Source: an uncultured delta proteobacterium (GTDB lineage Bacteria > Desulfobacterota > BSN033 > UBA1163). From it: a DNA stretch of 64,000 bases. Each line of letters begins with the position of its first letter. The stretch's first letter is position 1. Location of the stretch: positions 74,630 to 138,629 of the forward strand of contig CAVSVC010000010.1 in the NCBI GenBank assembly GCA_963731045.1, given 5' to 3'. The translations under genes were made by a program, and so were the position numbers. The notes under the pieces were generated by a model. The model saw only the letters and a program-made list of their open reading frames with translations, did no database searches and was not told the DNA's origin. Positions 6,762 through 25,483 of the stretch are shown here, one piece after another.

Positions 6762-6812
6762 CTCCGTAATCCCCCTTTCTTGAATGACTCCACTCTGATC
6801 TTCCCAAACTTA

Positions 6813-8219
6813 TCAGACTACCCTCTCCTTTGTCAATCCTCCGCGGCGGTCCCGCCATAGGGACGCAAGGGTCCCGCCAAGGCATAGGACGGTAAATACG
6901 ACGAAAGCGATTCTTGCACTTCTGATAAATTGCGGGTAGGACGCAGGGGTCATCTGGGACCGTCCCATGCACAAAGAAAAAATCAACATCGTCATTCCCA
7001 TACTGAAGGTCATCCCCGTCGTCCGCATCGTCCCGAGAATGCCTGAAGCCACACCGTAGAACCTTTTCTCCACAGATCTCATGACGGCATTCGTATTGGG
7101 GGACGAGAACAGGGCAAAACCGAAACCGAGGAGGACCAGGTTGCCGATAATGAGAACGATTCCCGTTCTTTCGCCCAGGAAAGCGAAAAGAAGAAGCCCC
7201 ACAGCGCTGATCGCCATTCCGATGGAGGCAACGATATGGGGCTCCATCCGATCCGAAAGCCTGCCGGCAAAGGGAGAAAAGATCGTCTGGACTACGGGCT
7301 GAGAAAGCAGAATCAAGCCTGCCTGCTGGGGATTAAACCCTTTGATGAATTGCAGGTAAAGACTGAGAAGAAACGTGACCGCAAACGTGGCACTGTAATT
7401 GATCAGAGCGGCAAGGTTGGAGAAGGCAAAACCCTTGTTCTTTCGGAAGAGATCGATGTTGAAAATGGGACTCTTCGACCTCATTTCCCATTTTGCAAAG
7501 ACGAAAAAACCGAGGGCGCTGAGGCCGATCAGGCAGGCCCCCTTGATCGCAGGGAGCTGCGACAGGCCGACCATGAGGCTCACCAGCGCCATGCCGTAAA
7601 GGCCCGCTCCCGGGAAGTCGAAGGCCTCCCCTTTCGCTTCGGTCCAGTCCCCTTTCACCTTCCACAGGGTGAGAAAAATGACAGGGAGTCCAAGGGGAAT
7701 GTTGATCAGGAAGACGCTCCGCCAACCCAAAGAGTGGGTGAGAAGCCCTCCGAAGAAGGGCCCGCATGAAAGTCCCCCGTAAACGGCGGCAACGTTGATC
7801 CCCAGGACCTTTCCTCTCTCCTCGGCGGGGAAGATCGATGTGACGATCGCCAGGGCCGTGGTGAAGATCATGGCTCCCCCGATCCCCTGGATCACACGGG
7901 TAAGAATTAGGAAAAAGGGCGACATGGCCATGGCTGCGAGAAGAGAGGCAAAGGCGTAGGTGATGGATCCGTAAAGGAATAACCTCTTTCTCCCGGAAAT
8001 ATCCGCAATCCTCCCGAACGGGATCTGTAAAATGGCAAGGGTCAAGAGATAAGAGCTTGTCACCCACCCCAGCAGGATGGCATCCATGGCGAACTCTTTC
8101 CCGATGGAAGGCAGGGCAATGTGAATGGACGACCCCGTGAAGGCAATCAAGAACGACCCGAGCGTCGTCACAAGGAGGACAGGTTTCCTGTTGGAAAGGT
8201 CTTCATTTAACGCCGTCAT
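6813..8219 (-). CDS. MFS transporter, DHA2/EmrB-like (about 14 TM segments)
   Basis: ORF 6813..8318. MFS motif GRIADISGRKRLFL and many hydrophobic helices. The start is probably ATG 8219 (MTALNEDLSNRKPV...). Confidence 0.85.
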   Translation of the reverse strand: MTALNEDLSNRKPVLLVTTLGSFLIAFTGSSIHIALPSIGKEFAMDAILLGWVTSSYLLTLAILQIPFGRIADISGRKRLFLYGSITYAFASLLAAMAMSPFFLILTRVIQGIGGAMIFTTALAIVTSIFPAEERGKVLGINVAAVYGGLSCGPFFGGLLTHSLGWRSVFLINIPLGLPVIFLTLWKVKGDWTEAKGEAFDFPGAGLYGMALVSLMVGLSQLPAIKGACLIGLSALGFFVFAKWEMRSKSPIFNIDLFRKNKGFAFSNLAALINYSATFAVTFLLSLYLQFIKGFNPQQAGLILLSQPVVQTIFSPFAGRLSDRMEPHIVASIGMAISAVGLLLFAFLGERTGIVLIIGNLVLLGFGFALFSSPNTNAVMRSVEKRFYGVASGILGTMRTTGMTFSMGMTMLIFSLCMGRSQMTPASYPQFIRSARIAFVVFTVLCLGGTLASLWRDRRGGLTKERVV

Positions 8220-8512
8220 GGAGTTCGTATCCTTTTCAACGCCTCTGCGCGGTTTTATCATGACAGAACCATAACAGATCTTCCAGCCCGGGTAAACAGA
8301 ATTTCTGCGGGATTTCAATTATGGCTCTTCGGGGTTTTGCGAGATGTCGGCCTGGAGTAGACCTGTCCGCCCTGCATACGCAGACAGGGGGCGAGGGGGA
8401 GTTAGATTCTTTTCGGGGGGAGTAAAGGGGAGGGATAAAGTGCCGGAACCCGCTGAAAAGCCGGAAGGACCTTCTTTCTTTTTTCGATGTCCTCTTCGGT
8501 TCGCAGGGGATG

Positions 8513-8590
8513 AAAAAATTCCAGGGCCTGATCATCTCTCTCAGCCGACTGAAGGGATCAGGGGTGGCTTATTTATGCCAGGCCCTGGAA
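8513..8590 (-). terminator. Long-stem rho-independent terminator closing the signalling operon
   Basis: Perfect 12-bp arms TTCCAGGGCCTG (8519-8530) and CAGGCCCTGGAA (8579-8590), with an inner hairpin CTGATC..GATCAG. On the minus strand the stem is followed by T6 (8518-8513). It starts 8 nt after the HTH gene stop. Confidence 0.6.
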
Positions 8591-8597
8591 TCACAAC

Positions 8598-8783
8598 TCA
8601 CCCTTGGTTCCATCTCTTTGCCTTCTTGATCGCTTCCGTAATCTCGTCCATATCAAAACGCCAGGAGTCTCCGATCTTGAACCCCGGAAGTTCCCCGGTC
8701 GAGGCCAACTTATAGATCGTGGATTCAGAAAGCTTTAAGAACTGGCTGAGTTCTTTCGCAGTGACAATGCTCCCCATCTTCAC
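8598..8783 (-). CDS. 61-aa excisionase/MerR-type helix-turn-helix DNA-binding protein
   Basis: ORF 8598..8783. VTAKELSQFLKLSESTIYKLASTGELPGFKIGDSWRF matches the HTH_17 / excisionase-family DNA-binding pattern. No integrase is nearby. Confidence 0.8.
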   Translation of the reverse strand: MKMGSIVTAKELSQFLKLSESTIYKLASTGELPGFKIGDSWRFDMDEITEAIKKAKRWNQG

Positions 8784-8865
8784 TCCTCTCGGGGTTGGTT
8801 TCTTTTTGATTTCTCAGTCCGGCTCTAAAGAAGAACACCCCCCTTATCCTGCCGACCCCTCTTGC

Positions 8866-10338
8866 TCACCGGTCCAGGACCTCGCGGACTTTCTTCGCGA
8901 GGGTCGTCGGCGAGAAGGGTTTCTGTAGAAACGGATCTCCCGGCTTGATCAGGGCCTGATGCGTCATCGTTAAATCGGAGTATCCGGAGATGAAAAGTAC
9001 TTTCGCTTCGGGGTGAAGCGTTCTGAATCGGCTAACGAGTTCTCTTCCGCCCACCTGGGGCATGACCACATCGGTAAGAAGAAGATGGATCTCCCTGCCG
9101 GCATAGTCGCGGCCCAGGTGGATGGCCTCGTTTCCGTGGATGGCCTCGATGACCGTGTACCCCTGGTCCCGCAGAATCCGGGCGGCCAATTCACGAACCG
9201 ATGTGTCGTCTTCCACAAGGAGAACCGTCTCATCTCCCTTCGGAGGGGGCTCTTTGGTATCGCGGGGAAGAAGCGTATCGATTTCTTCCTCGATTCGCGG
9301 CAGATAAACCTTGAACGAGGTGCCCCGGTTGACCTCGCTGTAAACCCAGATGTTTCCTCCGCTCTGTTTGACGATGCCGTAAACCGTGGAAAGGCCGAGG
9401 CCGGTCCCCTTTCCTTTCGTTGTAAAGAAGGGTTCGAAGATATGTTCCCTGACCTCGGCCGGCATCCCGCAGCCGGTATCGGTCACTGAGAGCACCACAT
9501 AGCTTCCGGGTCTGACCCCGACATGATAACGGGCGTATTCCTCATCCAGTGCCACATTGGCTGTTTCGAGCAGGAGGGTCCCGCCTTTCGGCATGGCGTC
9601 TCTTGCATTGACGACCAGGTTGAGGATCACCTGCTCGATTTGACTCAGATCGGTCCTGACCCTTCCCAGATCCTGAGCCAAAAGGGTTTTCAACTCGACG
9701 TCCTCCCCGATGATCCGGCGTAACATCCTGTCCAGGTCCTTCAATACCGCATTCAGATCGATCACCTTCATGTCCATGATCTGGCGCCGGCTGAAGGCCA
9801 GAAGCTGATGGGTCAATGCAGAGGCTTTCTCCGTCGCTTTCCGGATCTCCTCCAGATTTCCCCTCATGGGATCGCCCTCTTCAACTCCCAAGAGACAGAG
9901 CTGGGTGTAGCCGCTGAGGACCGTCAACAGGTTGTTGAAGTCATGGGCCACCCCCCCTGCCAGTTTTCCGATCGTCTCCATCTTCTGAGACTGAAAGAAT
10001 TGATTCTCGAGATGCTTTCGTTCGGTGATGTCTTCAATGATGAAGATGGTGAAATCCGGCTCTCCCTCTTCACTCCGGAGAAGTGAAACATTGACCAGCC
10101 CCCAGACGAAGCTGCCGTCTTTTCTGACATAGCGCTTCTCAATCTGGTAGTGATTTCGATTTCCGGACACCAGTTCCTCGTAGGACGGAACTTCCGCGGC
10201 GACATCCTCAGGATGGGTGAATTCTCTGAACAGTCTGTTCTGGAGCTCTTCTTTCCCATATCCAAGCATCCTCTCCAGGGCGGCATTGCTCTCAACAAGC
10301 CTCCCCCCCATATCCACAAGGGCGATCCCCGCCGCCAC
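8866..10338 (-). CDS. Soluble hybrid sensor histidine kinase (PAS-HisKA-HATPase-REC)
   Basis: ORF 8866..10338. H-box [12 protein letters not shown]-boxes DTGCGM and GTGLGLS, and a C-terminal receiver (VLLVEDD...LLLTDVVMP). The true start is probably ATG 10403 (SD GGAGG), reached through a homopolymer indel; see findings. Confidence 0.85.
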
Positions 10339-10503
10339 GCGTTCAAAGATCGCTTTGAACGTCGCCTCATTCCTCTGGGGGGCTTTTTCGGAGCGGTCTG
10401 CATTGGAAGGCCCCTCCGGATTCCAGGGGTGAGCAAAGCCCCTCCTTGAGGATCTTTGCGGGGGTGTCCCTCCGGGGTCTCACGGGCAGGTCTTTCTCAG
10501 GCA

Positions 10504-10869
10504 TCATGCGAACACCTGTGAGGTGATCCTGTCAATTTCAAAAATGTCCAGAGGTTTTCTCAAGTAGTTGAGGATGCCGAGGGATTTTGCCTCGTCTTCC
10601 ACACTCTCCTGATTACTTGCCGTAATGATGACCACGTCCACCTCTTTCTTATTTTCATGAAGCCGTCTCAGAATATCGATCCCATCGATGCCCGGCATCT
10701 TGATATCCAGAAACATGAGACTGGGCGGGTCGTCCTCCAGAATTTGAAGGGCTTTATAACCGTTTTCCGCTTTGATCAGATCGTATCGATCACCCAGAAG
10801 GACTTCAAAAGAATCGAGGATCCCTTGATCATCATCCACAACCAGAATTCGTTTTGAAAGATTTTCCAT
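10504..10869 (-). CDS. Single-domain CheY-like response regulator
   Basis: ORF 10504..11076. The receiver signature starts at ATG 10869 (MENLSKRILVVDDDQG...FLDIKMPGIDG...VIITA). Confidence 0.85.
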   Translation of the reverse strand: MENLSKRILVVDDDQGILDSFEVLLGDRYDLIKAENGYKALQILEDDPPSLMFLDIKMPGIDGIDILRRLHENKKEVDVVIITASNQESVEDEAKSLGILNYLRKPLDIFEIDRITSQVFA

Positions 10870-11086
10870 CGCGTCCTCCACAGCGTCTCTGTCTGAATGC
10901 CACTCTTCTCTCGATGGCGGAGAGAGGACTGAGGCAGGAGTCCAAGTCTTCGTCGGTCGGCCGTTCGAGACCGATACTTGGATGATTCCGGCGAACCGAT
11001 GTCTTTTTATCAGCAAAAAGAATGCCGGATCTCCGTGGAATTCCGGACTGGATGAAACTCTTTTAGAATTCAACAAGTTAAACGAG

Positions 11087-12985
11087 CTAAGGGATGTTAA
11101 GGAAATTCAGGAGAGCGGAGAGCGGATTGCCTATCCTAGTAGGCAGTTCTAAGTTTTTACAACAGGGAGTTCTCAGAACAACGAGGGCTCCTTTGCCTTT
11201 TTCACTCGTGACCTCAATGGAGCCTCTGTGGTCCTCCATGATCTTGTGAGCCAGGGCCATCCCGAGACCCACGCCCTTATCCTTGGTGGTGTAGAAAGGG
11301 TTAAAGATGTTCTTAGCGGTCACTTCGTCCATCCCGATTCCGGTATCCCGGAAGGCGATCTTGACCCTCGGCGACCCGGACTTCTCAACCCTGGAGGATA
11401 CCGAAAGCCGTCCCCCGCCCGGCATGGCCTGAAGGGCGTTGATGATCAGGTTCGAAAAAGCGCGGTAGAGCTTGTCGGGGTCACCATGGATCCCTCGAAG
11501 GCTTCGGTCCAGATGATCCTCAAAAACGATCTGTTTCCTGGCCATCTCTTCGTCATGGAGGTCCGTGACCTGAAGAATCAGTTGATTGACGTCGACATGA
11601 ACAAAGGGTCTCTTCCGGGTTCGGGTCAATTCCAGAAGATCTTCCACCAGTTGATTGATCCGTTCAATTTCGCGGGGGACCGTGACATTGAATCGCTCCA
11701 TAAAAGAGAGATTTTCAACCTTTTTGGGCAGGAGCTGGACGAAGGTCTTGATGGCCGAGAGGGGGTTCTTGATTTCGTGAGCAAGACCCGCAGAAAGGGT
11801 CCCCAGGGCTGCCAGGCGATCCGCCTGCCGGAGTTTCTCCTCCAATCCCTTCATCTCCGTGATGTCCTGGAAGATCGCCAGCGCTCCGATGGCCTTCTTC
11901 TCCCCATCCGTCAGGACCGAGGTGCTCGCCAGGATCCACAGCGTTTCTTCGCCTCTCTTCAGTTCACGCTCGGAAAGGAATAGCCCTTCGCCTTCGGAGA
12001 GGGTCTCGGTCAACATGGCCGAGAGGGGGTGGCTCACCCCCAGGACCTCCTCCAGGTTCCTCCCCGCCATTTCCTCCTCCCTTCTGGCCAGAATGCGCAC
12101 AGCCATCTGATTGAGGGTGACGATTCTCTTTTCCGGATCGATCGTCACGAGTCCATTGGTCATGGAGGCAAGCACGTTATCCGTATAGGCTTTGAGGGAG
12201 GTGATTTCCCGGAGACGGGTTTCCAATTCCATCCTGTGTAGAAGAATCTGCCGGATCATGTGATGAAAGTTCTTTCCCAGCTCTTCAATTTCATCCCCCG
12301 TCCGGATGTCGATGGCCTGTTCAAGATTTCCCCTCGCTGCCGCAATGGTCGATTCCACCAACCTCGAAATGGGTTGGGTGATCCGTCTTGCAAAAAAGAT
12401 GGAACCCAGAATACCGAGGATCACGGCGAAGAAAGCCAGGAGGAGGAGGTTGAAACGCGTCCGGGTAATCTGGCGATACATTCTCTCAAGGGAGAGGCCG
12501 ATTCGGACGGTTCCCCATTTCTCTTCGGACCCTTTGATAAAAACAGGAACGGCAATATCGAGGATCCTTTTTCCCGACTCCCCGTAAGACACGGCCGTGA
12601 CGGTGGGTTTCCGGGCCTCCAGCGCTTTTTGACTGACCTCATCCGTCAGGATCACCCCCTGTTTTTCATCGTGCCGACTGTACACAGCGACTTTCGTCTC
12701 CTTGTCATGGATGATCACGTAATCGATGTCCTCATCAAGCGCAACCTTTTCGCCGTTCTGCTGCAGAACGACATAGTTATAGGTGAGGAGGGCATTGATA
12801 CTGACGGAGGCCAGGTTTTGAGCAATGGCCAGCCCCCGCTTTCTCGACTCTTCCTGAATGATTTCAGACTGGCGTTTCTCAACCAAAAAAATGATGATGG
12901 CCATGAGGACAAGAATCAGGACCGTAGAATAAAGAATGAGACGGTTTTGCAGACGGAGCGATTTTGTTTTCAGAGGCAGAATCAT
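11087..12985 (-). CDS. Membrane sensor histidine kinase (extracytoplasmic domain-HAMP-PAS-HisKA-HATPase), NtrB/AtoS-like
   Basis: ORF 11087..12985. Two TM segments flank an approximately 150-aa loop. HAMP (RRITQPISRL), PAS, H-box AGLAHEIKNPLSAI, and G-boxes DTGIGM and GVGLGM. Confidence 0.9.
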   Translation of the reverse strand: MILPLKTKSLRLQNRLILYSTVLILVLMAIIIFLVEKRQSEIIQEESRKRGLAIAQNLASVSINALLTYNYVVLQQNGEKVALDEDIDYVIIHDKETKVAVYSRHDEKQGVILTDEVSQKALEARKPTVTAVSYGESGKRILDIAVPVFIKGSEEKWGTVRIGLSLERMYRQITRTRFNLLLLAFFAVILGILGSIFFARRITQPISRLVESTIAAARGNLEQAIDIRTGDEIEELGKNFHHMIRQILLHRMELETRLREITSLKAYTDNVLASMTNGLVTIDPEKRIVTLNQMAVRILARREEEMAGRNLEEVLGVSHPLSAMLTETLSEGEGLFLSERELKRGEETLWILASTSVLTDGEKKAIGALAIFQDITEMKGLEEKLRQADRLAALGTLSAGLAHEIKNPLSAIKTFVQLLPKKVENLSFMERFNVTVPREIERINQLVEDLLELTRTRKRPFVHVDVNQLILQVTDLHDEEMARKQIVFEDHLDRSLRGIHGDPDKLYRAFSNLIINALQAMPGGGRLSVSSRVEKSGSPRVKIAFRDTGIGMDEVTAKNIFNPFYTTKDKGVGLGMALAHKIMEDHRGSIEVTSEKGKGALVVLRTPCCKNLELPTRIGNPLSALLNFLNIP

Positions 12986-13012
12986 CTGAATCGGATTCCC
13001 TGTTGCGGAAGA

Positions 13013-14533
13013 TTACTTCTTCTTCAACCATATTTTCTTCATCGGGATGTAAGGCCCCCCAAGGGCGCTCACCTCCACCCCCCTGACGTAAGGTTGATAG
13101 ACCATCTGAAAGAGGGGGTTGACCATGGGGACAATCGGAGCGTCATCCAGAATCATCTCCTCGATCTTTCGGTACATCTCCATTCGCTTGAGATAATCCC
13201 TCTCGGCCCTTGCCTGTTCGAGGAGACGATCGACTTCCGGGTTTTGATAGGCCGTGTAATTATATTTGGATTTGGAATGGAAAAGCGTCCCGAGAAAATT
13301 ATCCGGGTCCGGGAAATCAGCGTACCAGGCATAGATGAAGACAGGGGCCTTGTGATTCCTGAGAAGGGATTCGTACGCAGGCCAGTTGGTTTCAAAACGG
13401 ATGTTCGTTCGCATGCCGATCCTGTTCAGCCGTGACTTGACTTCATTGAGCTCTTTCCGGGCTGCCTCGGACTGGGTCGCACTCCAGATTTCCAGGATCT
13501 GGTTTTTCAGGTCCCCTCCTTCGGCAAGGAGTTTCCTGGCCCGGATTTCATCAAAAGGATACATTTCTTTCTGGGGATCGTGGCCGGGCATCCCCGGGGG
13601 TAAAATACTCTTAGCCAGCATGAACTGATTCTTGTGAAGCTCGGAAACGATGAATTTCTTGTCGATGGCAAGATTGATGGCCTTTCTCAATCCCCGATGA
13701 TCCAGGGGGTTCGACAAGAGATGGAAACCATAGAATCTCAGGGAGAGAAGGGGTTTCTGCAAAAAAGGGTACTGTTTTTCCTGGACGATCTTCTCCAATC
13801 GGTCAGGAGGAATGAAGGATTCCTCCAGAGCACCTTCCTCGAAGGCCCGCAGGATCTCATTCCTGGGGGCTCCGTGGTAGACCTTGAAGACAATCCGATC
13901 CAGAAAAGGCCTTCCCTCAAAGTAATCCGGATTGGCCTCGAGAACGATCTCTTCCCCTTCTTTCATCGACACCAGCTTGAACGGCCCGGTCCCCACGGGA
14001 AAATTCCTGAAACCGATCCCCTTTTTTTTCCCCACCTCTTCCCTGGGAACAACCTTGGCGCCCTTCATGGCAAGGATGCTGATAAATGGGGCATAGGGTT
14101 CGGTCAGAATAATCCGGAGGGTGCGTTCATCCACCGCCACGAGCCCCTTTACCCCTTTTGCCCTTTTTTCCATGAACTCGTTTGCGCCGAGGATCCTGTT
14201 GAAAAAATCGGCGAAATTCGATTGCACATCCGAATCGAGTATCCGGGTGAAGGAGTATACGAAATCCGCTGCAGTCACCTTCCTGCCGTTGTGAAACCGG
14301 ACCCCTTCCCTCAGGTGAAACGTGTAGGTGAGGCCATCCGGAGAGATCTCCCACGATTTTGCAATGGCCGGAACCGTGTTGAGATCCTTGTCGAATTGAA
14401 CCAGGCCATCGAAGATCTGCTGAATGACCGTTGTCGAATAGATGTCCCTGGATAAGGCGGGATCAAGTGTTCTCGGACTGAACTCGAGAGGAATCCGATA
14501 GATCCCTCCGTGATTCGGGGGCTCTTTCTCCAT
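13013..14533 (-). CDS. Family-5 (OppA/DppA/NikA-type) solute-binding protein, orphan (no cognate permease or ATPase genes)
   Basis: ORF 13013..14533 has typical SBP_bac_5 sequence (IAKSWEISPDGLTYTFHLREGVRFHNG). A signal-peptide-like segment (FLFFILLQLFVLSWICPASAQS) lies in frame upstream of ATG 14533 but has no canonical start; see findings. Confidence 0.85.
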   Translation of the reverse strand: MEKEPPNHGGIYRIPLEFSPRTLDPALSRDIYSTTVIQQIFDGLVQFDKDLNTVPAIAKSWEISPDGLTYTFHLREGVRFHNGRKVTAADFVYSFTRILDSDVQSNFADFFNRILGANEFMEKRAKGVKGLVAVDERTLRIILTEPYAPFISILAMKGAKVVPREEVGKKKGIGFRNFPVGTGPFKLVSMKEGEEIVLEANPDYFEGRPFLDRIVFKVYHGAPRNEILRAFEEGALEESFIPPDRLEKIVQEKQYPFLQKPLLSLRFYGFHLLSNPLDHRGLRKAINLAIDKKFIVSELHKNQFMLAKSILPPGMPGHDPQKEMYPFDEIRARKLLAEGGDLKNQILEIWSATQSEAARKELNEVKSRLNRIGMRTNIRFETNWPAYESLLRNHKAPVFIYAWYADFPDPDNFLGTLFHSKSKYNYTAYQNPEVDRLLEQARAERDYLKRMEMYRKIEEMILDDAPIVPMVNPLFQMVYQPYVRGVEVSALGGPYIPMKKIWLKKK

Positions 14534-17217: not shown

Positions 17218-17922
17218 ATGCGCTTCACGGTTCAGAAAGAGTTGTTTGATCACCTGCCCGATCTTACGCTTGGCGTCGTCGTCGCAACCGGCCTGGACAA
17301 TACCCGTCCCCGCAAAGAAATCGATGATCTTCTGACCCGGGCTGTCGGAGGAATCAAGGAGAACATCAACACGGGGAAACCCCAGGACCATCCCAGGATC
17401 AAACCCTGGAGAGCGGCTTTTTCAAAGGTTGGCATTTCGGGAAGTAAATTTCCGAGTTCCATCGAGTCGATGACCCGGAGAATTCTGAAGGGAGACCCCT
17501 TTCCGAGAATCAACCCCCTGGTTGATCTTTATAACAGTCTCTCGTTGAAGTATCTGGTTCCCATGGGCGGTCACGATCTGGATACCCTGAGGGGAGATGT
17601 CCATCTTCGATTCGCGGAGGGATGGGAACCTTTTACCCCGATGGGAACAGGAGAACCCATGATCGTCCCAAAAGGGGAACTCGTCTATCGAGACGAACAG
17701 GAGGTGCTTACCCGGAATTGGGCATGGCGTCAGTGCGAAAAAGATAAAGCCACGGAAAGAACGAAAAACATCTTCATTCCCATCGACGTTCTTGGAGAGG
17801 TGGGCAAAGAGAGGGCGGGTGAAATCATCCGGGAGTTGGACACCTTGATCCCGCAGTTTCTGGGAGGGAAGATCCTTTCGTCCATTCTGGACAGCGAACA
17901 TCCCTCCGTGGAGATTGGGTGA
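17218..17922 (+). CDS. B3/B4 tRNA-binding-domain protein (PheT B3/B4-like)
   Basis: ORF 17218..17922, SD GAGAGGAG. The sequence pattern (DLTLGVVVATGLDN...PSSIESMTRR...INPLVDLYNSLSLKYLVPMGGHDLD) is typical of stand-alone B3/B4 proteins. Confidence 0.8.
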   Translation: MRFTVQKELFDHLPDLTLGVVVATGLDNTRPRKEIDDLLTRAVGGIKENINTGKPQDHPRIKPWRAAFSKVGISGSKFPSSIESMTRRILKGDPFPRINPLVDLYNSLSLKYLVPMGGHDLDTLRGDVHLRFAEGWEPFTPMGTGEPMIVPKGELVYRDEQEVLTRNWAWRQCEKDKATERTKNIFIPIDVLGEVGKERAGEIIRELDTLIPQFLGGKILSSILDSEHPSVEIG

Positions 17923-18080: not shown

Positions 18081-18242
18081 TCAGAATCCTTTCTTCTGAA
18101 TTTCCGCTAAGCCTTCATCCACTGTAAAAACGGCACCACATTTGGGGCATTTAATCTTTGTGTCTTTTGCAATGCCACCGCATCCTACCGAGAAAACTGC
18201 CAACATCGCCAATGCCAAGAAAATACTCACCCATTTCCTCAT
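18081..18242 (-). CDS. 53-aa putative lipoprotein with a CxxC knuckle
   Basis: Not in the ORF track. ATG 18242 follows AAGGAGGTGA. The product is MRKWVSIFLALAMLAVFSVGCGGIAKDTKIKCPKCGAVFTVDEGLAEIQKKGF, with a lipobox-like SVGC and CPKC. A terminator lies downstream. Confidence 0.6.
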   Translation of the reverse strand: MRKWVSIFLALAMLAVFSVGCGGIAKDTKIKCPKCGAVFTVDEGLAEIQKKGF

Positions 18243-18726
18243 TACGCTTCACCTCCTTTCGTTAAAGGTCTGGAGAAGTTCGGCTAACGTCACCCCGCCA
18301 ACACGAATAACAAAAAAATGAAGTTATTGTCAAGAAAAAAATGAACGAACACCAAAAAAGCGAGCGCCTCCCCGGCCCGCAGGCAGGGAATCAGGTCAGA
18401 CCGATAGCAGGTTCCCGGAAACATCGGCTATGAAGGGCGTATCCGGTCTTTCGTCGGCGCTTTCAAGGAAACCTATTTTTTCTTGGACGTCCCTTTCTTG
18501 GTTGCCTTCTTCGTTTTAGGAGTCTTCGTTCCACAGGCCATCTGTTCCCCCCGTTGTTTTCGTGCTAATTATTGATTTATTTATCTCTTTTAATTTACTA
18601 TTTGTCAAGAGTTTTCTTAATCGGGATTTCCGTAACGAAAACAGGGGTCTTATCGTCGGCCTCCTTTTCCCGGAAAAGAGAAGCCGTTTTTACTTCCCGT
18701 CTCTCCGTGGATTTGTCAAGGGTGCC

Positions 18727-19866
18727 ATGCCGCTGAAACGGACGAAAACAGCCCTTCTCCATCGAACGGATTACCTCTCGGGCAATGAAGCAGCTGCAGA
18801 GGCGGCCATTGCCGCCGGTTGCAGGTTTTACGCCGGATATCCCATCACCCCTTCCAGCGAAATCATGGAACGCATGGCGGTCCGTCTCGCGGAGGTGGGA
18901 GGGGTCTTCATCCAGATGGAGGATGAGATCGGTTCCATCTCCGCCGTCATCGGAGCGTCATGGGCCGGGGCGAAGGCCATGACCGCCACATCGGGTCCCG
19001 GATTCAGCCTGATGCAGGAAGCGATCGGATACGCCGCATTTACCGAAACGCCCTGCGTCGTCATGGATGTCCAGCGGGCAGGTCCCGGCACCGGCCAGGC
19101 GACCAGAGTGGGAAGCGGTGACGTCATGCAGGCGAAATGGGGCTCCCATGGCGACTATCAGGTGATCGCCCTCTCTCCCTGGTCGGTTCAGGAAATGGCG
19201 GATTTCACCATTCAGGCCTTCAATCTCAGCGAACGGTATCGTGTCCCTGCCATGGTTCTGGCCGACGCAGCCATCGGTCATCTTCGGGAAAATGTTTCCA
19301 TCCCACGAAGGATCGAAACCTGGTCCAGAAAGAAGAGGAAAGGGGCTCCCCCTTTCGGGACCGATTCGGAAGACGGGGTTCCGGATATGCCGGCTTTCGG
19401 GGAGGGCGCCCGTCTGCTCGTCACCGGGTCCACCCATGATGCGATGGGTTTCCGAAAGACCGATGATCCGGAGGCTCATGCCAGACTCGTCGAGCGTATC
19501 CATCAAAAAATCCTGAAGCATCGGGGATCGATTGCTCAAACCGAATCCTACTTCCTGGAAGAGGCTGAAACGGTTGTCGTGGCCTACGGGTTCACTGCCC
19601 GGACGAGCCTCTATGCGGTCAGAAGACTGCGTCAGGAGGGCGCAAAGGTCGGCTTGTTAAGATTGAAAACCCTCTGGCCTTTCCCGGAGGAGGCGGTTCG
19701 AAAAGCAGGGGAGCGGGTTCAGTGGGTCGTCGTTCCCGAAATGAATCAGGGCCAGGTTGCCGGAGAGGTGAAAAAGGCGTGTCTTCGCGATGTCCTCCAG
19801 ATCCATCAAAGCAACGGGGAAGTCATCCGTCCCGAGAAGATCTTTGAGGTTTTGAAGAACCTGTAG
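18727..19866 (+). CDS. korA: 2-oxoacid:ferredoxin oxidoreductase, alpha subunit
   Basis: ORF 18562..19866. Homology begins at ATG 18727 (MPLKRTK...GNEAAAEAAIAAGCRFYAGYPITPSSEI). Confidence 0.9.
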   Translation: MPLKRTKTALLHRTDYLSGNEAAAEAAIAAGCRFYAGYPITPSSEIMERMAVRLAEVGGVFIQMEDEIGSISAVIGASWAGAKAMTATSGPGFSLMQEAIGYAAFTETPCVVMDVQRAGPGTGQATRVGSGDVMQAKWGSHGDYQVIALSPWSVQEMADFTIQAFNLSERYRVPAMVLADAAIGHLRENVSIPRRIETWSRKKRKGAPPFGTDSEDGVPDMPAFGEGARLLVTGSTHDAMGFRKTDDPEAHARLVERIHQKILKHRGSIAQTESYFLEEAETVVVAYGFTARTSLYAVRRLRQEGAKVGLLRLKTLWPFPEEAVRKAGERVQWVVVPEMNQGQVAGEVKKACLRDVLQIHQSNGEVIRPEKIFEVLKNL

Positions 19867-19935
19867 GGAGGACGTCTGCTGCTTCGAGATCGGACGGGTG
19901 GCAGCACGGGATGGCCCTACGGATGAGGTTCCGCA

Positions 19936-20700
19936 ATGGCAAGAGCAATGGAAAAGTATCTCCGCCCCGGCGTCAAGGGAACCCCTTTCTGCCCGGGCTG
20001 CGGCCACGGGATCCTGATGCATGCCGTTTTAAGGGCCATAGATGAACTCAACCTGAAGATGGAGAAGCTGCTCTTTGTCTCCGGGATCGGGTGCGCTGCG
20101 TGGATCCCCAGTCCCCATTTTAATGGAGACACCCTTCATACCCTTCACGGCAGGGCGCTGGCCTTTGCCACGGGGGCCAAACTCTTCAACCCGGATCTCA
20201 CGGTGATGGTCATCAGCGGAGACGGAGATCTTTCTTCGATCGGAGGAAATCATCTGATCCACGCGGCAAGAAGAAACATCGACCTGAAGGTGATCTGTGC
20301 CAACAATATGATCTACGGGATGACGGGCGGACAGGTTGCCTCGACCACGCCGAAAGGATCAAGAACCTCCACCACAGAAGAAGGGAATCCCTACCGTCCT
20401 TTTGATCTGTGCAAGCTGGTGGAGGCCGCAGGCGCAACGTACGTGGCCAGGTACTCCGTCACACAACCCGAAGGGCTGATGCGCTCCATCAAGAAGGCTT
20501 TTCTCAACAGAGGGTTCTCTTTCATCGAGGTCCTCTCTCCCTGTCCGACACAGTTCGGCAGAAGGAATCAATTCGACCGCCCTGAGGATATGGTCCAGAA
20601 CCTCATCCGGCAATGCATTCTCAAGGAGGAGGCGGAGCGGTTGACGGAGGAAGAACTGTCCGGAAGGATCATCACCGGGGAATTCGTCTGTTCATCTTAA
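19936..20700 (+). CDS. korB: 2-oxoacid:ferredoxin oxidoreductase, beta (TPP-binding) subunit
   Basis: ORF 19936..20700. FCPGCGHG and the TPP motif ISGDGDLSSIGGNHLIHAARRN. Confidence 0.9.
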   Translation: MARAMEKYLRPGVKGTPFCPGCGHGILMHAVLRAIDELNLKMEKLLFVSGIGCAAWIPSPHFNGDTLHTLHGRALAFATGAKLFNPDLTVMVISGDGDLSSIGGNHLIHAARRNIDLKVICANNMIYGMTGGQVASTTPKGSRTSTTEEGNPYRPFDLCKLVEAAGATYVARYSVTQPEGLMRSIKKAFLNRGFSFIEVLSPCPTQFGRRNQFDRPEDMVQNLIRQCILKEEAERLTEEELSGRIITGEFVCSS

Positions 20701-20724
20701 ACTTTCCCTATCGGATGGGATGCC

Positions 20725-21273
20725 GTGGCAAAGATCACACAGGTTCGTTTGAGCGGTTTTGGAGGCCAGGGGATTGTCCTGGCAGGAAGACTCCTGGGTC
20801 ATGCGGGGGTGATCGAAGGGAAATATGTTTGCGGCTCGGACGCCTATGGTGCCCAGGCCCGGGGCTCCGGCTGCAAATCGGAGGTCATTTTTTCAAAGGA
20901 TCCCATCGACTTTCCCCATCTGATCGGAGCGGACATTCTTGTGGCTATGTCGCAGCAGGCCTATCAGGCGGACTGTGACGATGTTATAAAACCGTCAGGG
21001 CTCGTTTTTTACGATCAGGGGCAGGTGACACCCAGGCAGGATTTGAATGTGAGTCAATTTGGAATTCCGGCGACAGCCTATGCCGTCAAGAAACTGAAGA
21101 ACAGGCAGGTTGCAAACATCATCCTGGTCGGCAGCCTTGTGGAGAAGACGGGAATCGTCTCTCCCGGTACCCTCCGGAAGGCTATCCGTTCTTTGATCCC
21201 CCCAAGATTCTCGGCCCTGAACATCGAGGCCTTCCGGGTCGGCATGGACCTGGGGAGAAAAACGCATGGTTGA
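20725..21273 (+). CDS. korC: 2-oxoacid:ferredoxin oxidoreductase, gamma subunit
   Basis: ORF 20725..21273 (GTG start). RLSGFGGQGIVLAG is typical of the gamma subunit. Confidence 0.85.
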   Translation: MAKITQVRLSGFGGQGIVLAGRLLGHAGVIEGKYVCGSDAYGAQARGSGCKSEVIFSKDPIDFPHLIGADILVAMSQQAYQADCDDVIKPSGLVFYDQGQVTPRQDLNVSQFGIPATAYAVKKLKNRQVANIILVGSLVEKTGIVSPGTLRKAIRSLIPPRFSALNIEAFRVGMDLGRKTHG

Positions 21274-22648
21274 GGGAAGAACCCACAGGCCGGTGATTCA
21301 TCCGGAGAAATGCCGGAGCTGCAATATCTGCATCAGAGGGTGTCCTGCGGAAATCATTCCGGAATACCGACAGGAACCGGAGACCCTGCGTGGCGCCCTT
21401 TACAGAGGAAGGTTGACAGAAGCCGGACGGGAAGACCGGGTGCCGCTTCCTCCGTGTCAGGAGGCCTGTCCCATCCATCAGGATACAAGAGGCTATGCCG
21501 GCCTCATTGCCAGAGGAAAGCTGAAAGAGGCCCTCGAATTGATCCGGGAAGTTAACCCCCTCCCGGCTGTCTGTGGATTTATCTGCCACCACCTTTGTGA
21601 AGAGGCCTGTTTGAGAACCGAGGTGGATCAGCCCGTCCCGCTCAGGCTCCTGAAGCGCTTCGTCGCGGAATACGAGAGGGAAGGAGGGAGGGTCCTCCGC
21701 AGACCCCGGAAAAAGAGACGCGAAAGAATCCTGGTGATCGGTTCCGGACCTGCAGGCCTGACGGCAGCCAATGATTTGAGCCTTCTGGGATACGGGGTGG
21801 TCATTATGGAAGCCCTTCCGGTCTCCGGGGGAATGCTTGCCGTGGGGATCCCGGAATTTCGGTTACCCAGGGACATCCTCAAAATGGAAATCGAAGGCAT
21901 CAAAGCACTCGGGGTGGAGGTCCGGACGGAACACCCTTTCCGGTTCGACGGGAGCGTGAACGTCTTTCGAAAGCTCGGCTTCCAGGCGGTCTTTCTTTCC
22001 ATCGGGGCCCATCGCAGCGCCCGCCTGAAGGTGCCGGGCACCGCATTCCAGGGGGTCTCATCTGGAGTGGAATTCCTGCGGGATCTGAACCTCGGTAAGA
22101 CCATGCCGGTTGGAAAGAAAGTCGTCGTGATCGGCGGCGGGAATGTCGCCCTTGATGTGGCGCGTTCCGTCATTCGACGGAAAGCGGAGTCGGTCGACCT
22201 CATTTATCGAAGATCCCGGAGAGAGATGCCCGCCATGGCCGAGGAAGTGGATGAAGCCGTTCGCGAAGGGATCAGGATGCTTTTTCTTGCGTCTCCCGTT
22301 CGAATCACCGGAAAAAACGGCAAGGCAACCGGTCTGGAATGTGTCCGAATGGAGCTTGGCCCGCTCGATCGATCAGGGAGACCATGGCCGGTCCCGATTG
22401 AAGGATCCGGTTTCAGGGTGAAGGCCGATCGCATCATTTCAGCCATAGGCCAGCGTGTGGACTCAAGCGCTTTAAGAGGACTCGCCCTCCGGGAAGATGG
22501 AACCCTGGCGGTCCATCCGGACACCGGGGCAGCGAACGTGGAAGGTGTTTTTGCAGGAGGGGACGTGGTCACAGGACCTGGCTGGGCGATCGATGCCATC
22601 GCAGCCGGCAAAAGGGGGGCCGTATCGATCGATCAATACCTTTCATGA
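21266..22648 (+). CDS. GltD/NfnB/SudA-like FAD-dependent NAD(P)H oxidoreductase with Fe-S clusters
   Basis: ORF 21266..22648 overlaps the korC stop by 8 nt. It has an N-terminal CRSCNICIRGCP and the GltD-type cluster region (CQEACP...VCGFICHHLCEEACLR). There are two dinucleotide folds (VIGSGPAGL, VIGGGNVALD). Confidence 0.85.
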   Translation: MVEGRTHRPVIHPEKCRSCNICIRGCPAEIIPEYRQEPETLRGALYRGRLTEAGREDRVPLPPCQEACPIHQDTRGYAGLIARGKLKEALELIREVNPLPAVCGFICHHLCEEACLRTEVDQPVPLRLLKRFVAEYEREGGRVLRRPRKKRRERILVIGSGPAGLTAANDLSLLGYGVVIMEALPVSGGMLAVGIPEFRLPRDILKMEIEGIKALGVEVRTEHPFRFDGSVNVFRKLGFQAVFLSIGAHRSARLKVPGTAFQGVSSGVEFLRDLNLGKTMPVGKKVVVIGGGNVALDVARSVIRRKAESVDLIYRRSRREMPAMAEEVDEAVREGIRMLFLASPVRITGKNGKATGLECVRMELGPLDRSGRPWPVPIEGSGFRVKADRIISAIGQRVDSSALRGLALREDGTLAVHPDTGAANVEGVFAGGDVVTGPGWAIDAIAAGKRGAVSIDQYLS

Positions 22649-22658
22649 AGGGGCGGGA

Positions 22659-22982
22659 ATGACGAGGGAATGTAAGAAAGAAGTTGTACCGAAGCCGAAA
22701 CGGGAAGGCCCGCTTCACAGGAAGCGAAGGCAGGGCCCCCCCGCCGGAGAATCCGGCCTTCAAAAGGAAGAGGCCGTTCAGGAAGCCCAACGTTGCCTGG
22801 GGTTGCGGGAATGTGAATCGTGTGAGACCTGTTCTCTCTTCTGCCCCGATCTCTGCATCACCCGGGACGAGAAGACAGGGCAGGTCCAGATCGACCTGAA
22901 CTACTGCAAAGGATGCGGCATCTGTGCATCCGTCTGTCCCAAAAAAGCGATTCAGATGGTCCTGGAAGGGGAAGGGGTATGA
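22659..22982 (+). CDS. korD: 2x[4Fe-4S] ferredoxin, delta subunit of the 2-oxoacid oxidoreductase
   Basis: This is the C-terminal part of ORF 22497..22982, starting at ATG 22659. Motifs CESCETCSLFCP and CKGCGICASVCP. Confidence 0.8.
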   Translation: MTRECKKEVVPKPKREGPLHRKRRQGPPAGESGLQKEEAVQEAQRCLGLRECESCETCSLFCPDLCITRDEKTGQVQIDLNYCKGCGICASVCPKKAIQMVLEGEGV

Positions 22983-23764
22983 AAGAGAAGATACGGTTCG
23001 ATCTCAATTCCGATGTCGGAGAGAGTTTCGGAGTTTACAAACTGGGACTCGATGAGGACGTGATTCCTCACATCACCTCCGCAAACATCGCCTGTGGTTT
23101 CCATGCCGGGGATCCCGGGGTCATGCGGAAGACCGTCGCCCTGGCCAAACAGTATGGTGTCGCCGTCGGCGCCCATCCCGGATTTCCAGACCTCATGGGA
23201 TTCGGAAGAAGAAAGATGGACGCCACGATCGAAGAAATCCAGGATTACGTCGTCTATCAGACCGGGGCCCTTCAGGCCTTTGCCAGGGCTCAGGGGCTCA
23301 AATTGCAGCACCTGAAAGCGCACGGCGGTCTCTACAACATGGCTGTGGCAAATCCGAAAATCTGGCAGGCCATGGCCGAGGCTGTAGCCAGCGTGGATCC
23401 GGAGATCATTCTGATCGTCCTGGCTTCCTCAATGAGAGACACCCTGCTGGAGACGGGAAAACGGGTGGGGATCCGTTTCGCCTTTGAAGCCTTTCCTGAC
23501 CGCGCCTACAACAGCGATGGCGCGCTGACCTCGCGAAGAGAAAAAGGGGCAGTGATCGAAGACCATCAACGAGTGGCTCAGAGGGCACTGAAAATGGCCC
23601 TGGAGGGGAAAGTCGTTGCGACCGATGGGACAGAGATTGACCTCAGGGCGGAAACCCTCTGCGTTCACGGGGACAACCCTGCCGCAGTCCAGATGGTCAA
23701 AAAGATCCGGGAAGACCTGAAAACAGCCGGCGTCGAAGTGACAGCCCTGCAGAATCTATTCTAA
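22979..23764 (+). CDS. pxpA: 5-oxoprolinase subunit A (LamB/YcsF family)
   Basis: ORF 22913..23764. Start ATG 22979 overlaps the korD stop (ATGA). DLNSDVGESFG...ANIACGFHAGDP is characteristic. Confidence 0.9.
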   Translation: MKEKIRFDLNSDVGESFGVYKLGLDEDVIPHITSANIACGFHAGDPGVMRKTVALAKQYGVAVGAHPGFPDLMGFGRRKMDATIEEIQDYVVYQTGALQAFARAQGLKLQHLKAHGGLYNMAVANPKIWQAMAEAVASVDPEIILIVLASSMRDTLLETGKRVGIRFAFEAFPDRAYNSDGALTSRREKGAVIEDHQRVAQRALKMALEGKVVATDGTEIDLRAETLCVHGDNPAAVQMVKKIREDLKTAGVEVTALQNLF

Positions 23765-23782
23765 GAGAACAGATTCGAAGCA

Positions 23783-23817
23783 CCTGCCTGCGCGTAGCCG
23801 CTTCGGAGCAGGCAGGG
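23783..23817. repeat. REP-like GC-rich palindromic element, copy 2 (inverted relative to copy 1)
   Basis: CCTGCCTGCGCGTAGCCGCTTCGGAGCAGGCAGGG has stem CTGCCTGC/GCAGGCAG and is followed by GATTTCGGATTTTTTGG. It lies between pxpA and pxpB. Confidence 0.6.
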
Positions 23818-23840
23818 ATTTCGGATTTTTTGGTGAGGGG

Positions 23841-24530
23841 ATGAATCTTTATCCGGAAACCGTCTTCAGGCCAATGGGAGATCGCGGCCTCCTGCTTGAA
23901 TTCGGAGATGCGATCAGCCGTGAGGCAAACGATAAGGTAAGGAGAATGGCCCTTGCCCTCCAGGCGAAGGCCATTGCCGGCATTGTTGAAACGGTCCCTG
24001 CCTATCGTTCTCTTCTCGTCATCTATGATCCGCTGCTCCTCTGCGTCACTGCCGTGAAGGAAGCCTTAAAGAAGATCGAGAGAGAACTTCAGCAGATCAC
24101 GTTTCCCCAGCCGAAGCTGAACCGGATTCCTGTCCTCTATGGAGGTTCTTATGGTCCGGACCTGGATGACGTCGCCCGGCACCATCAGATCCCATCCGGA
24201 GAGGTCATCCGTCTCCATTGCAGTCTTCCCTATCTCATTTACATGATCGGCTTTATGCCCGGGTATCCCTATATGGGAGAACTCCCGGAGAAACTCGTCA
24301 CACCCCGGCTGAAGACGCCGAGATTATCGGTTCCGGCCGGTTCCGTGGCGATTGCACAGAGGCAGACGGGCATCTATACGGTGGAGAGCCCGGGAGGCTG
24401 GCGGGTCATCGGCCGCACCCCGGAAAGACTGTTCGATCCTCAAAAAGACCCCCCTGCCCTGCTTCAAGCGGGAGACCAGGTCCGGTTCTATCCCATCTCT
24501 GAAAAAGAGTTTGAAGCATGGAGACGATAG
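23841..24530 (+). CDS. pxpB: 5-oxoprolinase subunit B (KipI / allophanate hydrolase subunit 1 family)
   Basis: ORF 23841..24530. VPAYRSLLVIYDP and GFMPGYPYMG motifs. Confidence 0.9.
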   Translation: MNLYPETVFRPMGDRGLLLEFGDAISREANDKVRRMALALQAKAIAGIVETVPAYRSLLVIYDPLLLCVTAVKEALKKIERELQQITFPQPKLNRIPVLYGGSYGPDLDDVARHHQIPSGEVIRLHCSLPYLIYMIGFMPGYPYMGELPEKLVTPRLKTPRLSVPAGSVAIAQRQTGIYTVESPGGWRVIGRTPERLFDPQKDPPALLQAGDQVRFYPISEKEFEAWRR

Positions 24531-25483
24531 AGACTTTCGAAGTCCTGGACCCCGGCATCCTGACCACGATTCAGGACCTCGGCCGGCACGGCCTTGCCCG
24601 GTTCGGAGTCCCTCCTTCCGGGGCTTCAGATTCCTTTTCATTCAGAGCCGCCAATCTCCTTGCGGGAAACCGGGAGGCCGAGGCGTGCCTTGAAATCACG
24701 ATCATGGGTCTCAGGATGAGGGCTTTAAGGGAGATTGTCGTCTCTATCACAGGCGGGGACCTCACCCCTCTTCTCAACGGAGATCCCCTTGCAATGTGGA
24801 AGACCCACCTCCTGGTCGAAGGGGACATCGTCGCCTTCAAGAAGGTGAGGACGGGCTGCCGGGCCTATCTTGCAGCGGGGGGAGGCATCTCCGTTTCCCC
24901 TGTCATGGGAAGCCGGGCCACCTGTCTCTCCGGAAAATTCGGCGGCTTGGAAGGCAGGGCCCTGAAGCGTGGGGATCTCCTCTCTGTCCCGGACGTCCCG
25001 CCCCTGTTGAAAAACGTGGGAACTCAATTTCCAGGCGTCTGGGTCCCCGACCTGAAGAAAGAGGCCTCTTTCAAAGTGATCTTCGGCCCTCAGGACGATC
25101 ACTTTACTCAGGAGGGAATCGGCACCTTCCGGTCTTCCGTCTACGAGGTGTCTCGCCAATGTGACCGGACCGGCATCCGGCTCCAGGGCCCGATCATTCG
25201 AAGACGGCCGGACGTGGAAGAATCGATCATCTCCGAAGGACTGGTCCCGGGAGTGATCCAGGTCCCAGGGGACGGTCAACCCATGATGATCCTGACGGAA
25301 ACAGTCACTGGGGGCTACGCAAAGATTGCCACCGTCATTTCCGCCGAGTTAAGCAGAATCGCCCAGTTGAAACCGGGAGACAGGGTGCGTTTTGAATCCA
25401 TCGGCATTGAGGAGGCCCACCGTCTTCTTCGGGAACAGGAAGAGCGTTTAAGCGCTTTTGCCGCTTCACTCCAGCGGGGTTGA
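24518..25483 (+). CDS. pxpC: 5-oxoprolinase subunit C (KipA / allophanate hydrolase subunit 2 family)
   Basis: ORF 24518..25483 overlaps pxpB by 13 nt. TIQDLGRHG...G(V)PPSGA pattern. Confidence 0.9.
   Translation: METIETFEVLDPGILTTIQDLGRHGLARFGVPPSGASDSFSFRAANLLAGNREAEACLEITIMGLRMRALREIVVSITGGDLTPLLNGDPLAMWKTHLLVEGDIVAFKKVRTGCRAYLAAGGGISVSPVMGSRATCLSGKFGGLEGRALKRGDLLSVPDVPPLLKNVGTQFPGVWVPDLKKEASFKVIFGPQDDHFTQEGIGTFRSSVYEVSRQCDRTGIRLQGPIIRRRPDVEESIISEGLVPGVIQVPGDGQPMMILTETVTGGYAKIATVISAELSRIAQLKPGDRVRFESIGIEEAHRLLREQEERLSAFAASLQRG

Follow-up and report, generated by a model that had tools for sequence, protein, structure and literature searches.

Genes for an Oor-like 2-oxoacid oxidoreductase with a split NfnB-like flavoprotein and ferredoxin module are coupled to pxpA in an uncultured delta proteobacterium

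Introduction

2-Oxoacid:ferredoxin oxidoreductases (OFORs) are normally read as ferredoxin-reducing enzymes in metabolic reconstructions of anaerobes. The 2-oxoglutarate:NADP+ oxidoreductase (KGOR) of Azoarcus evansii, the subject of work by Ebenau-Jehle, Boll and Fuchs in 2003, reportedly has three large subunits, namely a fused gamma-alpha protein, a beta protein and a flavoprotein of about 63 kDa. The 5-oxoprolinase PxpABC, reportedly the work of Niehaus et al. in 2017, is said to be encoded by ybgJKL in E. coli and ycsFIJ in B. subtilis and to serve generally in glutamate salvage. Here we describe a locus at which genes of both kinds stand together. It lies in a 64,000-nucleotide stretch of DNA (the window, to which coordinates refer unless a contig is named) from an uncultured delta proteobacterium (GTDB lineage Bacteria; Desulfobacterota; BSN033; UBA1163), taken from positions 74,630 to 138,629 of contig CAVSVC010000010.1 in assembly GCA_963731045.1. 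Five genes for a Kor-type OFOR with a flavoprotein, which we call the cassette, are followed there by three genes for 5-oxoprolinase.

The locus had been singled out in an earlier note, made from the sequence alone, which left open whether its subunit composition had been characterized. A precedent does exist in the Azoarcus evansii enzyme, one subunit of which belongs to the GltD/NfnB family (PMC10134865, citing Ebenau-Jehle et al. 2003). With a probability of roughly 0.6, we read korABC, the flavoprotein gene and korD as encoding an NADP+-reducing 2-oxoacid oxidoreductase of five polypeptides, made from one message with PxpABC.

Gene organization

The gene order first proposed, korA-korB-korC-flavoprotein-korD-pxpA-pxpB-pxpC, was confirmed, with all eight genes on the plus strand at the following positions.

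18727-19866, plus strand: korA, OFOR alpha subunit, 379 aa (POR_N and PFOR_II)
19936-20700, plus strand: korB, thiamine pyrophosphate (TPP)- and [4Fe-4S]-binding beta subunit, 254 aa (TPP_enzyme_C)
20725-21273, plus strand: korC, gamma subunit, 182 aa, GTG start (POR domain)
21266-22648, plus strand: NfnB/GltD-family flavoprotein with FAD, iron-sulfur (Fe-S) and NADPH sites, 460 aa (Fer4_20 and Pyr_redox_2)
22659-22982, plus strand: korD, delta-type ferredoxin subunit with 2x[4Fe-4S], 107 aa (TIGR02179 PorD_KorD)
22979-23764, plus strand: pxpA, 5-oxoprolinase subunit A, LamB/YcsF (PF03746, NF003814)
23841-24530, plus strand: pxpB (CT_C_D, TIGR00370)
24518-25483, plus strand: pxpC (CT_A_B, TIGR00724)

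Two start codons overlap the stop of the preceding gene, both as the earlier note had read them: that of the flavoprotein gene with korC, by 8 nt (letters ATGGTTGA), and that of pxpA with korD, as ATGA. The overlap between pxpB and pxpC measures 13 nt, and the korD ATG, preceded by the Shine-Dalgarno sequence AAGGGG, stands 10 nt beyond the flavoprotein stop. Terminator-like sites are not above the level of shuffled sequence anywhere in the operon, and no Rfam element matches in it. The idea of a single co-translated unit is supported by this background level and by the conservation, described below, of the -8 and -4 nt overlaps.

The flavoprotein and KorD as a split module

The 566-position NCBIfam model PRK12771 (NF009410), which describes one 'NAD(P)-binding protein' with an NfnB-like domain and a PorD-like ferredoxin at the C terminus, matches the flavoprotein at positions 47 to 446 with 415.6 bits, and its positions 488 to 565 match KorD with 64.5 bits; neither window protein reaches the single-protein cutoff of 516 bits. 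A fused PRK12771 paralogue of 585 aa in the same genome, on contig C52, scores 545 bits against that cutoff. Its residues 43 to 439 align with the flavoprotein at 47% identity, and residues 488 to 581 align with KorD, including the basic, linker-like arm at the KorD N terminus, at 38% identity. Judged by these alignments, the flavoprotein and KorD are a split PRK12771-type protein. Chance or an assembly error does not account for the arrangement: more than 100 homologues of the flavoprotein have lengths of 458 to 462 aa (63 to 90% identity), and about 27 species-level genomes repeat the gene order. A frameshifted PRK12771 pseudogene was also considered and ruled out, given the 460-aa form in more than 100 homologues and a korD with its own ATG and Shine-Dalgarno sequence.

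At its N terminus the split flavoprotein exceeds the fused paralogue by about 40 residues, which carry the motif CxxCxxCxxxCP (residues 16 to 27). This Cys4 motif is conserved in 16/16 aligned split orthologues, one of them from Dehalococcoidales, and is nearly invariant (at least 90% of sequences). A second motif, YRRSxxEMPA in the second Rossmann fold, is invariant among the aligned orthologues and recurs in NfnB of T. maritima, NfnI of P. furiosus and StnC of Sporomusa. We take the NfnB-type subunits of the T. maritima and P. furiosus Nfn enzymes and StnC to bind NADPH, and the motif is probably of the NADPH type; it is the sole sequence proxy for the use of NADP+. An AlphaFold2 model of the flavoprotein (mean predicted local distance difference test, pLDDT, 78.9) superposes best on the NfnB-like part of Nfn-ABC (9bov_A; TMq 0.83, 47% identity). 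TMq values against Nfn-ABC, StnC and NfnB together span 0.80 to 0.83, NfnABC is also among the best matches, and GltD of glutamate synthase ranks lower, at 32% identity; residues 1 to 66 of the model fall below 50, which leaves the Cys4 arm uninformative. In a tree of NfnB-like modules, the split clade of Thermodesulfobacteriota is supported (100/98) and the deep nodes are unresolved, so a single origin of the OFOR-linked modules is neither shown nor excluded.

The earlier note had the flavoprotein inserted between the gamma and delta genes, a description that did not hold up once the canonical paralogues were compared. Kor-type alpha genes of about 390 aa, 48 to 53% identical to KorA, occur in 54/55 genomes of the GTDB order, which consists of a single family. 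At three of the four canonical Kor loci inspected, a small ferredoxin gene with two motifs sits just upstream of alpha and no flavoprotein gene is present, giving the order delta-alpha-beta-gamma as in OorDABC. No delta gene was found upstream of korA in the window, and the stretch from 17 to 26 kb has no ferredoxin motifs other than the N-terminal one of the flavoprotein and the two in KorD. Because the canonical paralogues have their delta gene upstream of alpha and the cassette has none, delta has been replaced rather than displaced: the split flavoprotein and KorD take the place of an upstream OorD-type delta. A delta-less three-subunit Kor accompanied by an independent module was rejected as a description, since the paralogues show ferredoxin motifs upstream of alpha.

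Our main argument for a single assembly, in which electrons would pass from the core through KorD and the flavoprotein to NADP+, is that a KorD-like delta is fused to the flavoprotein in paralogues. The original proposal that the flavoprotein could wire the Kor Fe-S chain to NAD(P)+ is the best supported, with a fused flavoprotein-delta paralogue, the lack of any other delta gene and the NADPH-type motif behind it. The same net reaction could be obtained, however, if no stable five-subunit complex formed and KorD were a dedicated soluble ferredoxin served by the flavoprotein as a separate ferredoxin:NADP+ reductase. The family scores of KorD give this some color, as KorD (66.5 bits for TIGR02179 PorD_KorD, cutoff 60.05) is nearer to PorD than to OorD: its best delta-type match is a PFOR delta (9bt4_G, 50 bits), followed by the OOR delta OorD at only 26 bits, and the OorD equivalog NF007205 stays at 25 against a cutoff of 93. 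The gap between the flavoprotein gene and korD also varies, from 26 to 350 nt in relatives and from 10 nt when the window is counted. A further point against our reading is that PRK12771-like fused proteins occur away from any OFOR, as on contig C61, so the module can work alone. We nevertheless regard separate soluble proteins as unlikely, in that KorD is the only delta-type gene available to an Oor-like core whose paralogues carry delta, the paralogues fuse KorD to the flavoprotein, and the korC/flavoprotein overlap is invariant.

The protein on C61 (10000-22000; gene at 4732-6444, minus strand) is a stand-alone PRK12771-like protein of 570 aa with no OFOR nearby, and its neighbors are an OYE/pyridine-nucleotide oxidoreductase fusion and an amidohydrolase. 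The operon that encodes the fused paralogue on C52 (62000-76000; genes at 4562-8900) comprises gamma, the 585-aa NfnB-like and delta fusion, alpha and beta of a Por/Vor-type OFOR; a LarA-like gene precedes it, and genes for a GntR regulator and a TRAP transporter follow.

The catalytic core and its substrate

By Pfam and NCBIfam the OFOR catalytic core is complete, with alpha domains I and II, a TPP-binding beta subunit bearing a CPGC motif, and gamma. KorA scores 526.8 bits for NF006412 (2-oxoacid:acceptor oxidoreductase alpha; cutoff 411), and its nearest solved relatives are 1yd7 from P. furiosus (420 bits) and H. pylori OorA (8ys5_A, 280 bits). KorB shares about 50% identity with H. pylori OorB (8ys5_C) over 245 aa, and its CPGC motif lines up with OorB Cys19/Cys22, which are among the ligands of the proximal cluster (PMC12307629). 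The nearest solved relatives of KorC are 3on3 and OorC (8ys5_B, 70 bits for OorC). After the H. pylori 2-oxoglutarate oxidoreductase (OOR) chains, the next solved match is the Magnetococcus OGOR.

The substrate we modestly favor is 2-oxoglutarate, because the H. pylori OOR chains are the nearest of known substrate, because the assembly, which is 82% complete, yielded no 2-oxoglutarate dehydrogenase E1, and because one gene of the glutamate dehydrogenase (GDH) family is encoded elsewhere in the genome. Against this, KorA, KorB and KorC all fall below the NCBIfam 2-oxoglutarate equivalog cutoffs (NF007206, 358.6 versus 579; NF007207, 248 versus 364), and the VorB subfamily also scores 312 bits. 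Canonical Kor paralogues are moreover nearly universal in the family, where the cassette is accessory, so it may be a specialized isoenzyme or use a different 2-oxoacid, for example one released in amino-acid breakdown. Aminotransferase and branched-chain amino-acid transporter genes beside cassettes outside the family would suit such a role. We consider another substrate possible but doubtful. Among solved chains whose substrate is known, those of the H. pylori enzyme are nearest for beta, alpha and gamma alike. Apart from the two flavoprotein-linked ones, no canonical Kor is seen in the part of the genome that is assembled (82%), and a dedicated VorB, a Por, an IorA and a Pad-like enzyme have their genes elsewhere in it.

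Of the 5-oxoprolinase subunits, PxpA scores 329 bits for PF03746 and 358 for NF003814 (cutoff 226), and PxpB 210.5 for TIGR00370 (cutoff 145.55). PxpC passes the domain-level TIGR00724 (277, cutoff 230) and falls short of the equivalog NF045499 (210, cutoff 500).

Conservation and linkage to 5-oxoprolinase

A scan of 185,579 species genomes for the kor-flavoprotein order showed that the arrangement recurs, a point for which the earlier note had proposed a neighborhood survey: korA-korB-korC-flavoprotein-korD is present at about 27 species-level loci, labeled Thermodesulfobacteriota, 'Syntrophaceae', 'Syntrophorhabdus' or 'delta proteobacterium', and pxpA comes next in most. The korC/flavoprotein overlap is 8 nt at every such locus with an intact assembly. 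The korD/pxpA overlap is 4 nt at nearly all pxpA-bearing loci, the exceptions being one 1-nt overlap and one frameshifted assembly. The remaining junctions range from -28 to +4309 nt in related loci, with korA-korB at -4 to +464 nt and pxpA-pxpB at 88 to 4309 nt. The operon stops after pxpA in at least four genomes; pxpB lies elsewhere in three of these and was not found in the fourth. With the -8 and -4 overlaps constant while the other junctions vary, these two overlaps appear to be the feature under selection.

Among 55 genomes of the family, a flavoprotein orthologue (E ≤ 1e-150) is present in 31, representing 13/21 genera. This is an undercount, as one further copy is frameshifted in its assembly. 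The pxpA gene is present in 47/55. Wherever both genes occur on contigs long enough for their coordinates to be compared, kor and pxpA are adjacent (23/23 genomes). Cassettes that lack pxpA were also seen, in three genomes, and at two loci a Kelch-like gene lies directly 3' of korD.

We inspected four relatives that lack the cassette. Three show the order B3/4-lipoprotein-[pxpA-pxpB-pxpC]-Kelch-NYN-ilvA at the same locus, and in the fourth, on a short contig, pxpABC adjoins the NYN gene. For three of the four the sequence before pxpA is available; there the gene carries a Shine-Dalgarno sequence of its own and is preceded by the conserved upstream region that cassette-bearing relatives share. 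One of the three has the leader word AATTTAAAGCC ahead of pxpA, the others have close variants of it, and at least one cassette-bearing genome has the word ahead of korA. The five kor genes thus appear, from this comparison of sequences, as a discrete presence/absence block placed exactly after the pxp leader and before the start codon of pxpA. The junction sequences fit gain or loss of the cassette alike. As the cassette sits between the pxp leader and the pxpA start, both enzymes would be made from one message, and such co-transcription points to a common function in 5-oxoproline and glutamate use or salvage.

Outside the family, cassettes occur in Dehalococcoidales and two other Thermodesulfobacteriota (loci L031, L033 and L036). 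None is linked to pxp, and their neighbors are an aminotransferase, a MutL/B12 pair, and a LIV transporter with a class III aminotransferase.

The junction between kor and pxp could also be metabolically meaningless, the result of a single insertion or deletion before pxpA after which the ATGA was merely inherited, and we rate this as falling only somewhat short of an even chance. The cassette and pxp are separable, many relatives having the same leader and syntenic locus with pxpABC alone, and the three cassettes without pxpA show the converse. All linked genomes belong to one GTDB family, beyond which the cassette never adjoins pxp. Within that family the whole neighborhood is syntenic (binding protein, sigma-54 activator, B3/4 gene, lipoprotein, kor-pxp, Kelch-like gene, NYN gene, ilvA and btuD), so part of the conservation is simple descent. 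These points tell against a functional tie. In its favor, however, the two genes are adjacent in every testable genome, and the 4-nt overlap persists down to 62 to 70% flavoprotein identity while pxpB and pxpC drift or relocate, which ties the cassette to pxpA itself. The coupling of Kor to 5-oxoprolinase, as first suggested, is therefore real in one family by overlap and adjacency and is not obligate. Since each occurs alone, it is better described as co-regulation of two autonomous enzymes than as an obligate pathway.

Proposed reaction and electron path

Under our preferred reading of a five-polypeptide NADP+-reducing enzyme, an OorABC-like alpha/beta/gamma core would hold TPP and one [4Fe-4S] cluster in KorB, and the OorD-type delta would be replaced by KorD, with two [4Fe-4S] clusters, and the NfnB-like flavoprotein. 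The latter would carry two Fe-S clusters in Fer4_20, probably one on the N-terminal Cys4 motif, FAD and an NADPH site. The path of electrons would then lead from TPP through the KorB cluster, the KorD clusters and the flavoprotein clusters to FAD and NADP+, with no need for free ferredoxin. The likeliest reaction would be 2-oxoglutarate + CoA + NADP+ -> succinyl-CoA + CO2 + NADPH, which would be strongly exergonic. In the pathway that this suggests, PxpABC would convert 5-oxoproline to glutamate, a GDH or aminotransferase encoded elsewhere would yield 2-oxoglutarate, and the Kor enzyme would produce succinyl-CoA and NADPH. The step from glutamate to 2-oxoglutarate is indeed missing from the operon, as the earlier note had it, and the GDH-family gene could supply it.

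The complex had been pictured as either NAD(P)-linked or bifurcating. We favor the former, because no second branch (NfnA/HydBC-like) is encoded. Were the NfnB-type FAD to support flavin-based bifurcation or confurcation, the Cys4 cluster might begin a second branch, coupling NADP(H) to the TPP site and a second acceptor while PxpA feeds or drains the glutamate/2-oxoglutarate pool. The enzyme might then split 2-oxoacid electrons between NADP+ and ferredoxin or carry out NADPH-assisted 2-oxoglutarate synthesis. The closest structures are in fact the bifurcating NADPH subunits of Nfn-ABC, StnABC and NfnAB, ahead of GltD, and the extra conserved Cys4 motif is the kind of site at which a second Fe-S branch could start. 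GltD and DPD share the fold and do not bifurcate, however, and neither an NfnA/PyrK-like nor a HydBC/NuoEF-like partner is present in the operon or its flanks. Both electrons of the 2-oxoacid are already at low potential, so confurcation is unneeded. We judge a bifurcating or confurcating enzyme very unlikely.

The direction of the reaction can be considered in the same way. Run reductively, the enzyme would be an NADPH-driven 2-oxoglutarate synthase in a 'glutamate supply' operon together with 5-oxoproline salvage, a picture to which the flavoprotein family, which feeds NADPH electrons into glutamate synthase, and the generally glutamate-salvaging role reported for 5-oxoprolinase would both lend themselves. 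Reductive carboxylation of succinyl-CoA requires electrons near -500 mV, and NADPH at about -320 mV is insufficient without a coupling site. With NADPH alone the reaction is thermodynamically implausible and no coupling partner was found among the eight genes or their neighbors, which makes this direction highly improbable.

If the oxidative, NADP+-reducing reading is correct, these uncultured Thermodesulfobacteriota would make NADPH rather than low-potential ferredoxin at this step, and their predicted redox and energy balance would change. The unfused five-subunit form would be a handy target for expression and cryo-electron microscopy of how an NfnB module docks on an OFOR, and the presence or absence of the cassette before pxpA offers a natural experiment on NADP-linked 2-oxoglutarate oxidation and 5-oxoproline use.

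Related loci and flanking sequence

NfnB-like proteins accompany OFORs more widely. In this genome they are encoded in three of seven OFOR operons, those of the window, C52 and C18. The C18 operon (68000-84000; genes at 3344-11290, minus strand) encodes a Kor-type alpha-beta-gamma core, a 1101-aa NfnB-like fusion and an HdrD-like CCG protein, and it has true orthologues (84 to 85% identity) in only two other genomes of the family. Elsewhere, NfnB-like genes directly follow Por-type alpha/beta genes in several Dehalococcoidia; one follows a C18-type core in a Chloroflexota genome, and one lies beside an Ior-type gene in a Myxococcota genome. A relative also has a lactam-type cluster (G056:C2:143000-161000, 332-14044) with genes for HyuA, HyuB, an SSF transporter, an 862-aa OYE and NfnB-like fusion, LamB/YcsF, a 113-aa open reading frame (ORF), CT_C_D, CT_A_B and biotin carboxylase. 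In it, for a second time and independently, an NfnB-like module lies next to a gene of the PxpA family.

Two noncoding features of the locus were delimited.

18243-18726, no strand assigned: upstream control region before korA (alignments with relatives)
23783-23830, plus strand: REP-like GC hairpin with U-run in the pxpA-pxpB gap (fold energy and z-score)

The upstream region contains a micro-ORF and two conserved TTGACA boxes, all on the minus strand, and its counterpart directly precedes pxpA in the cassette-free relatives. Conservation is poor in the korA leader proper. No sigma-54 promoter of the form TGGCAC-N5-TTGC was found in the korA leader, matches in the window being at chance level, and a riboswitch search gave no Rfam match. 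The micro-ORF (18473-18541, minus strand) is conserved, 22 codons long and very basic (MACGTKTPKTKKATKKGTSKKK), and lies between the lipoprotein gene and korA. In relatives it has the Shine-Dalgarno sequence AAGGAGGTGA and a conserved TTGACA box (plus strand TTGTCAAG, near 18604-18611), and it is kept upstream of pxpA in cassette-free relatives too.

Farther upstream, a B3/4-domain gene (17218-17922, plus strand) and a gene for a 53-aa lipoprotein (18081-18242, minus strand) are present in all relatives, with or without the cassette, and form separate transcription units. Membership of the B3/4-domain gene in the kor-pxp unit was ruled out, as the minus-strand lipoprotein gene and micro-ORF intervene with promoters of their own.

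The hairpin between pxpA and pxpB folds with -31.6 kcal/mol (z = -2.45). It may act as a partial terminator or attenuator of read-through, or it may stabilize the 3' end of the mRNA. Attenuation at this site would fit pxpA, rather than pxpBC, as the stable partner of korD. The first reading of the sequence had assigned this hairpin to a dispersed palindrome family.

Comparison with known systems

The OFOR core is closest in form to H. pylori OorDABC (8ys5; PMC12307629), whose alpha, beta and gamma are likewise separate proteins of the same size; it differs in that OorD is encoded upstream of the other genes there and no flavoprotein is present. With the NfnAB, Nfn-ABC and StnABC enzymes (4ylf, 5jca, 9bov, 9n5u and 8oh5) the flavoprotein has its fold and the YRRxxxEMPA motif in common, but the module of the window is joined to an OFOR, and no NfnA (a PyrK-like FAD/[2Fe-2S] protein) or HydBC-like partner is encoded among the eight genes or their neighbors. 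A solved structure of an NADP-linked OFOR with an NfnB module was not found among the PDB matches listed.

By NCBIfam names, PadEFGHI, the NADH-dependent phenylglyoxylate dehydrogenase, likewise combines an OFOR with a flavoprotein linked to pyridine nucleotides. A Pad-type core is not seen here, PadG and PadI scoring 89 and 59 bits against cutoffs of 700. A PadH-like subunit was ruled out, as NF045765 has no match at the locus.

Genes assigned to all three subunits of PxpABC are present, PxpA and PxpB lying above their NCBIfam cutoffs and PxpC below its equivalog cutoff. A further difference is that pxpA in the window is translationally coupled to the gene of a redox enzyme, while pxpB and pxpC are loosely attached in relatives. 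No paper linking 5-oxoprolinase with KGOR, or describing this operon, was found in the open literature.

The domain content and order of NF009410/PRK12771 are identical to those of the flavoprotein and KorD, the window version being split and carrying about 40 extra residues at its N terminus. Compared by description, the enzyme predicted here and the Azoarcus evansii KGOR are both TPP- and Fe-S-containing OFORs with a GltD/NfnB-family FAD subunit, and the Azoarcus enzyme reduces NADP+ directly. The window differs in its five separate polypeptides, the extra Cys4 motif, the Oor-like core and the junction with pxpA. The cassette is an unfused variant of an arrangement for which we found one biochemical precedent, from 2003, and one curated family model, and it is most likely an NADP+-reducing 2-oxoglutarate oxidoreductase like the Azoarcus evansii KGOR in unfused form.

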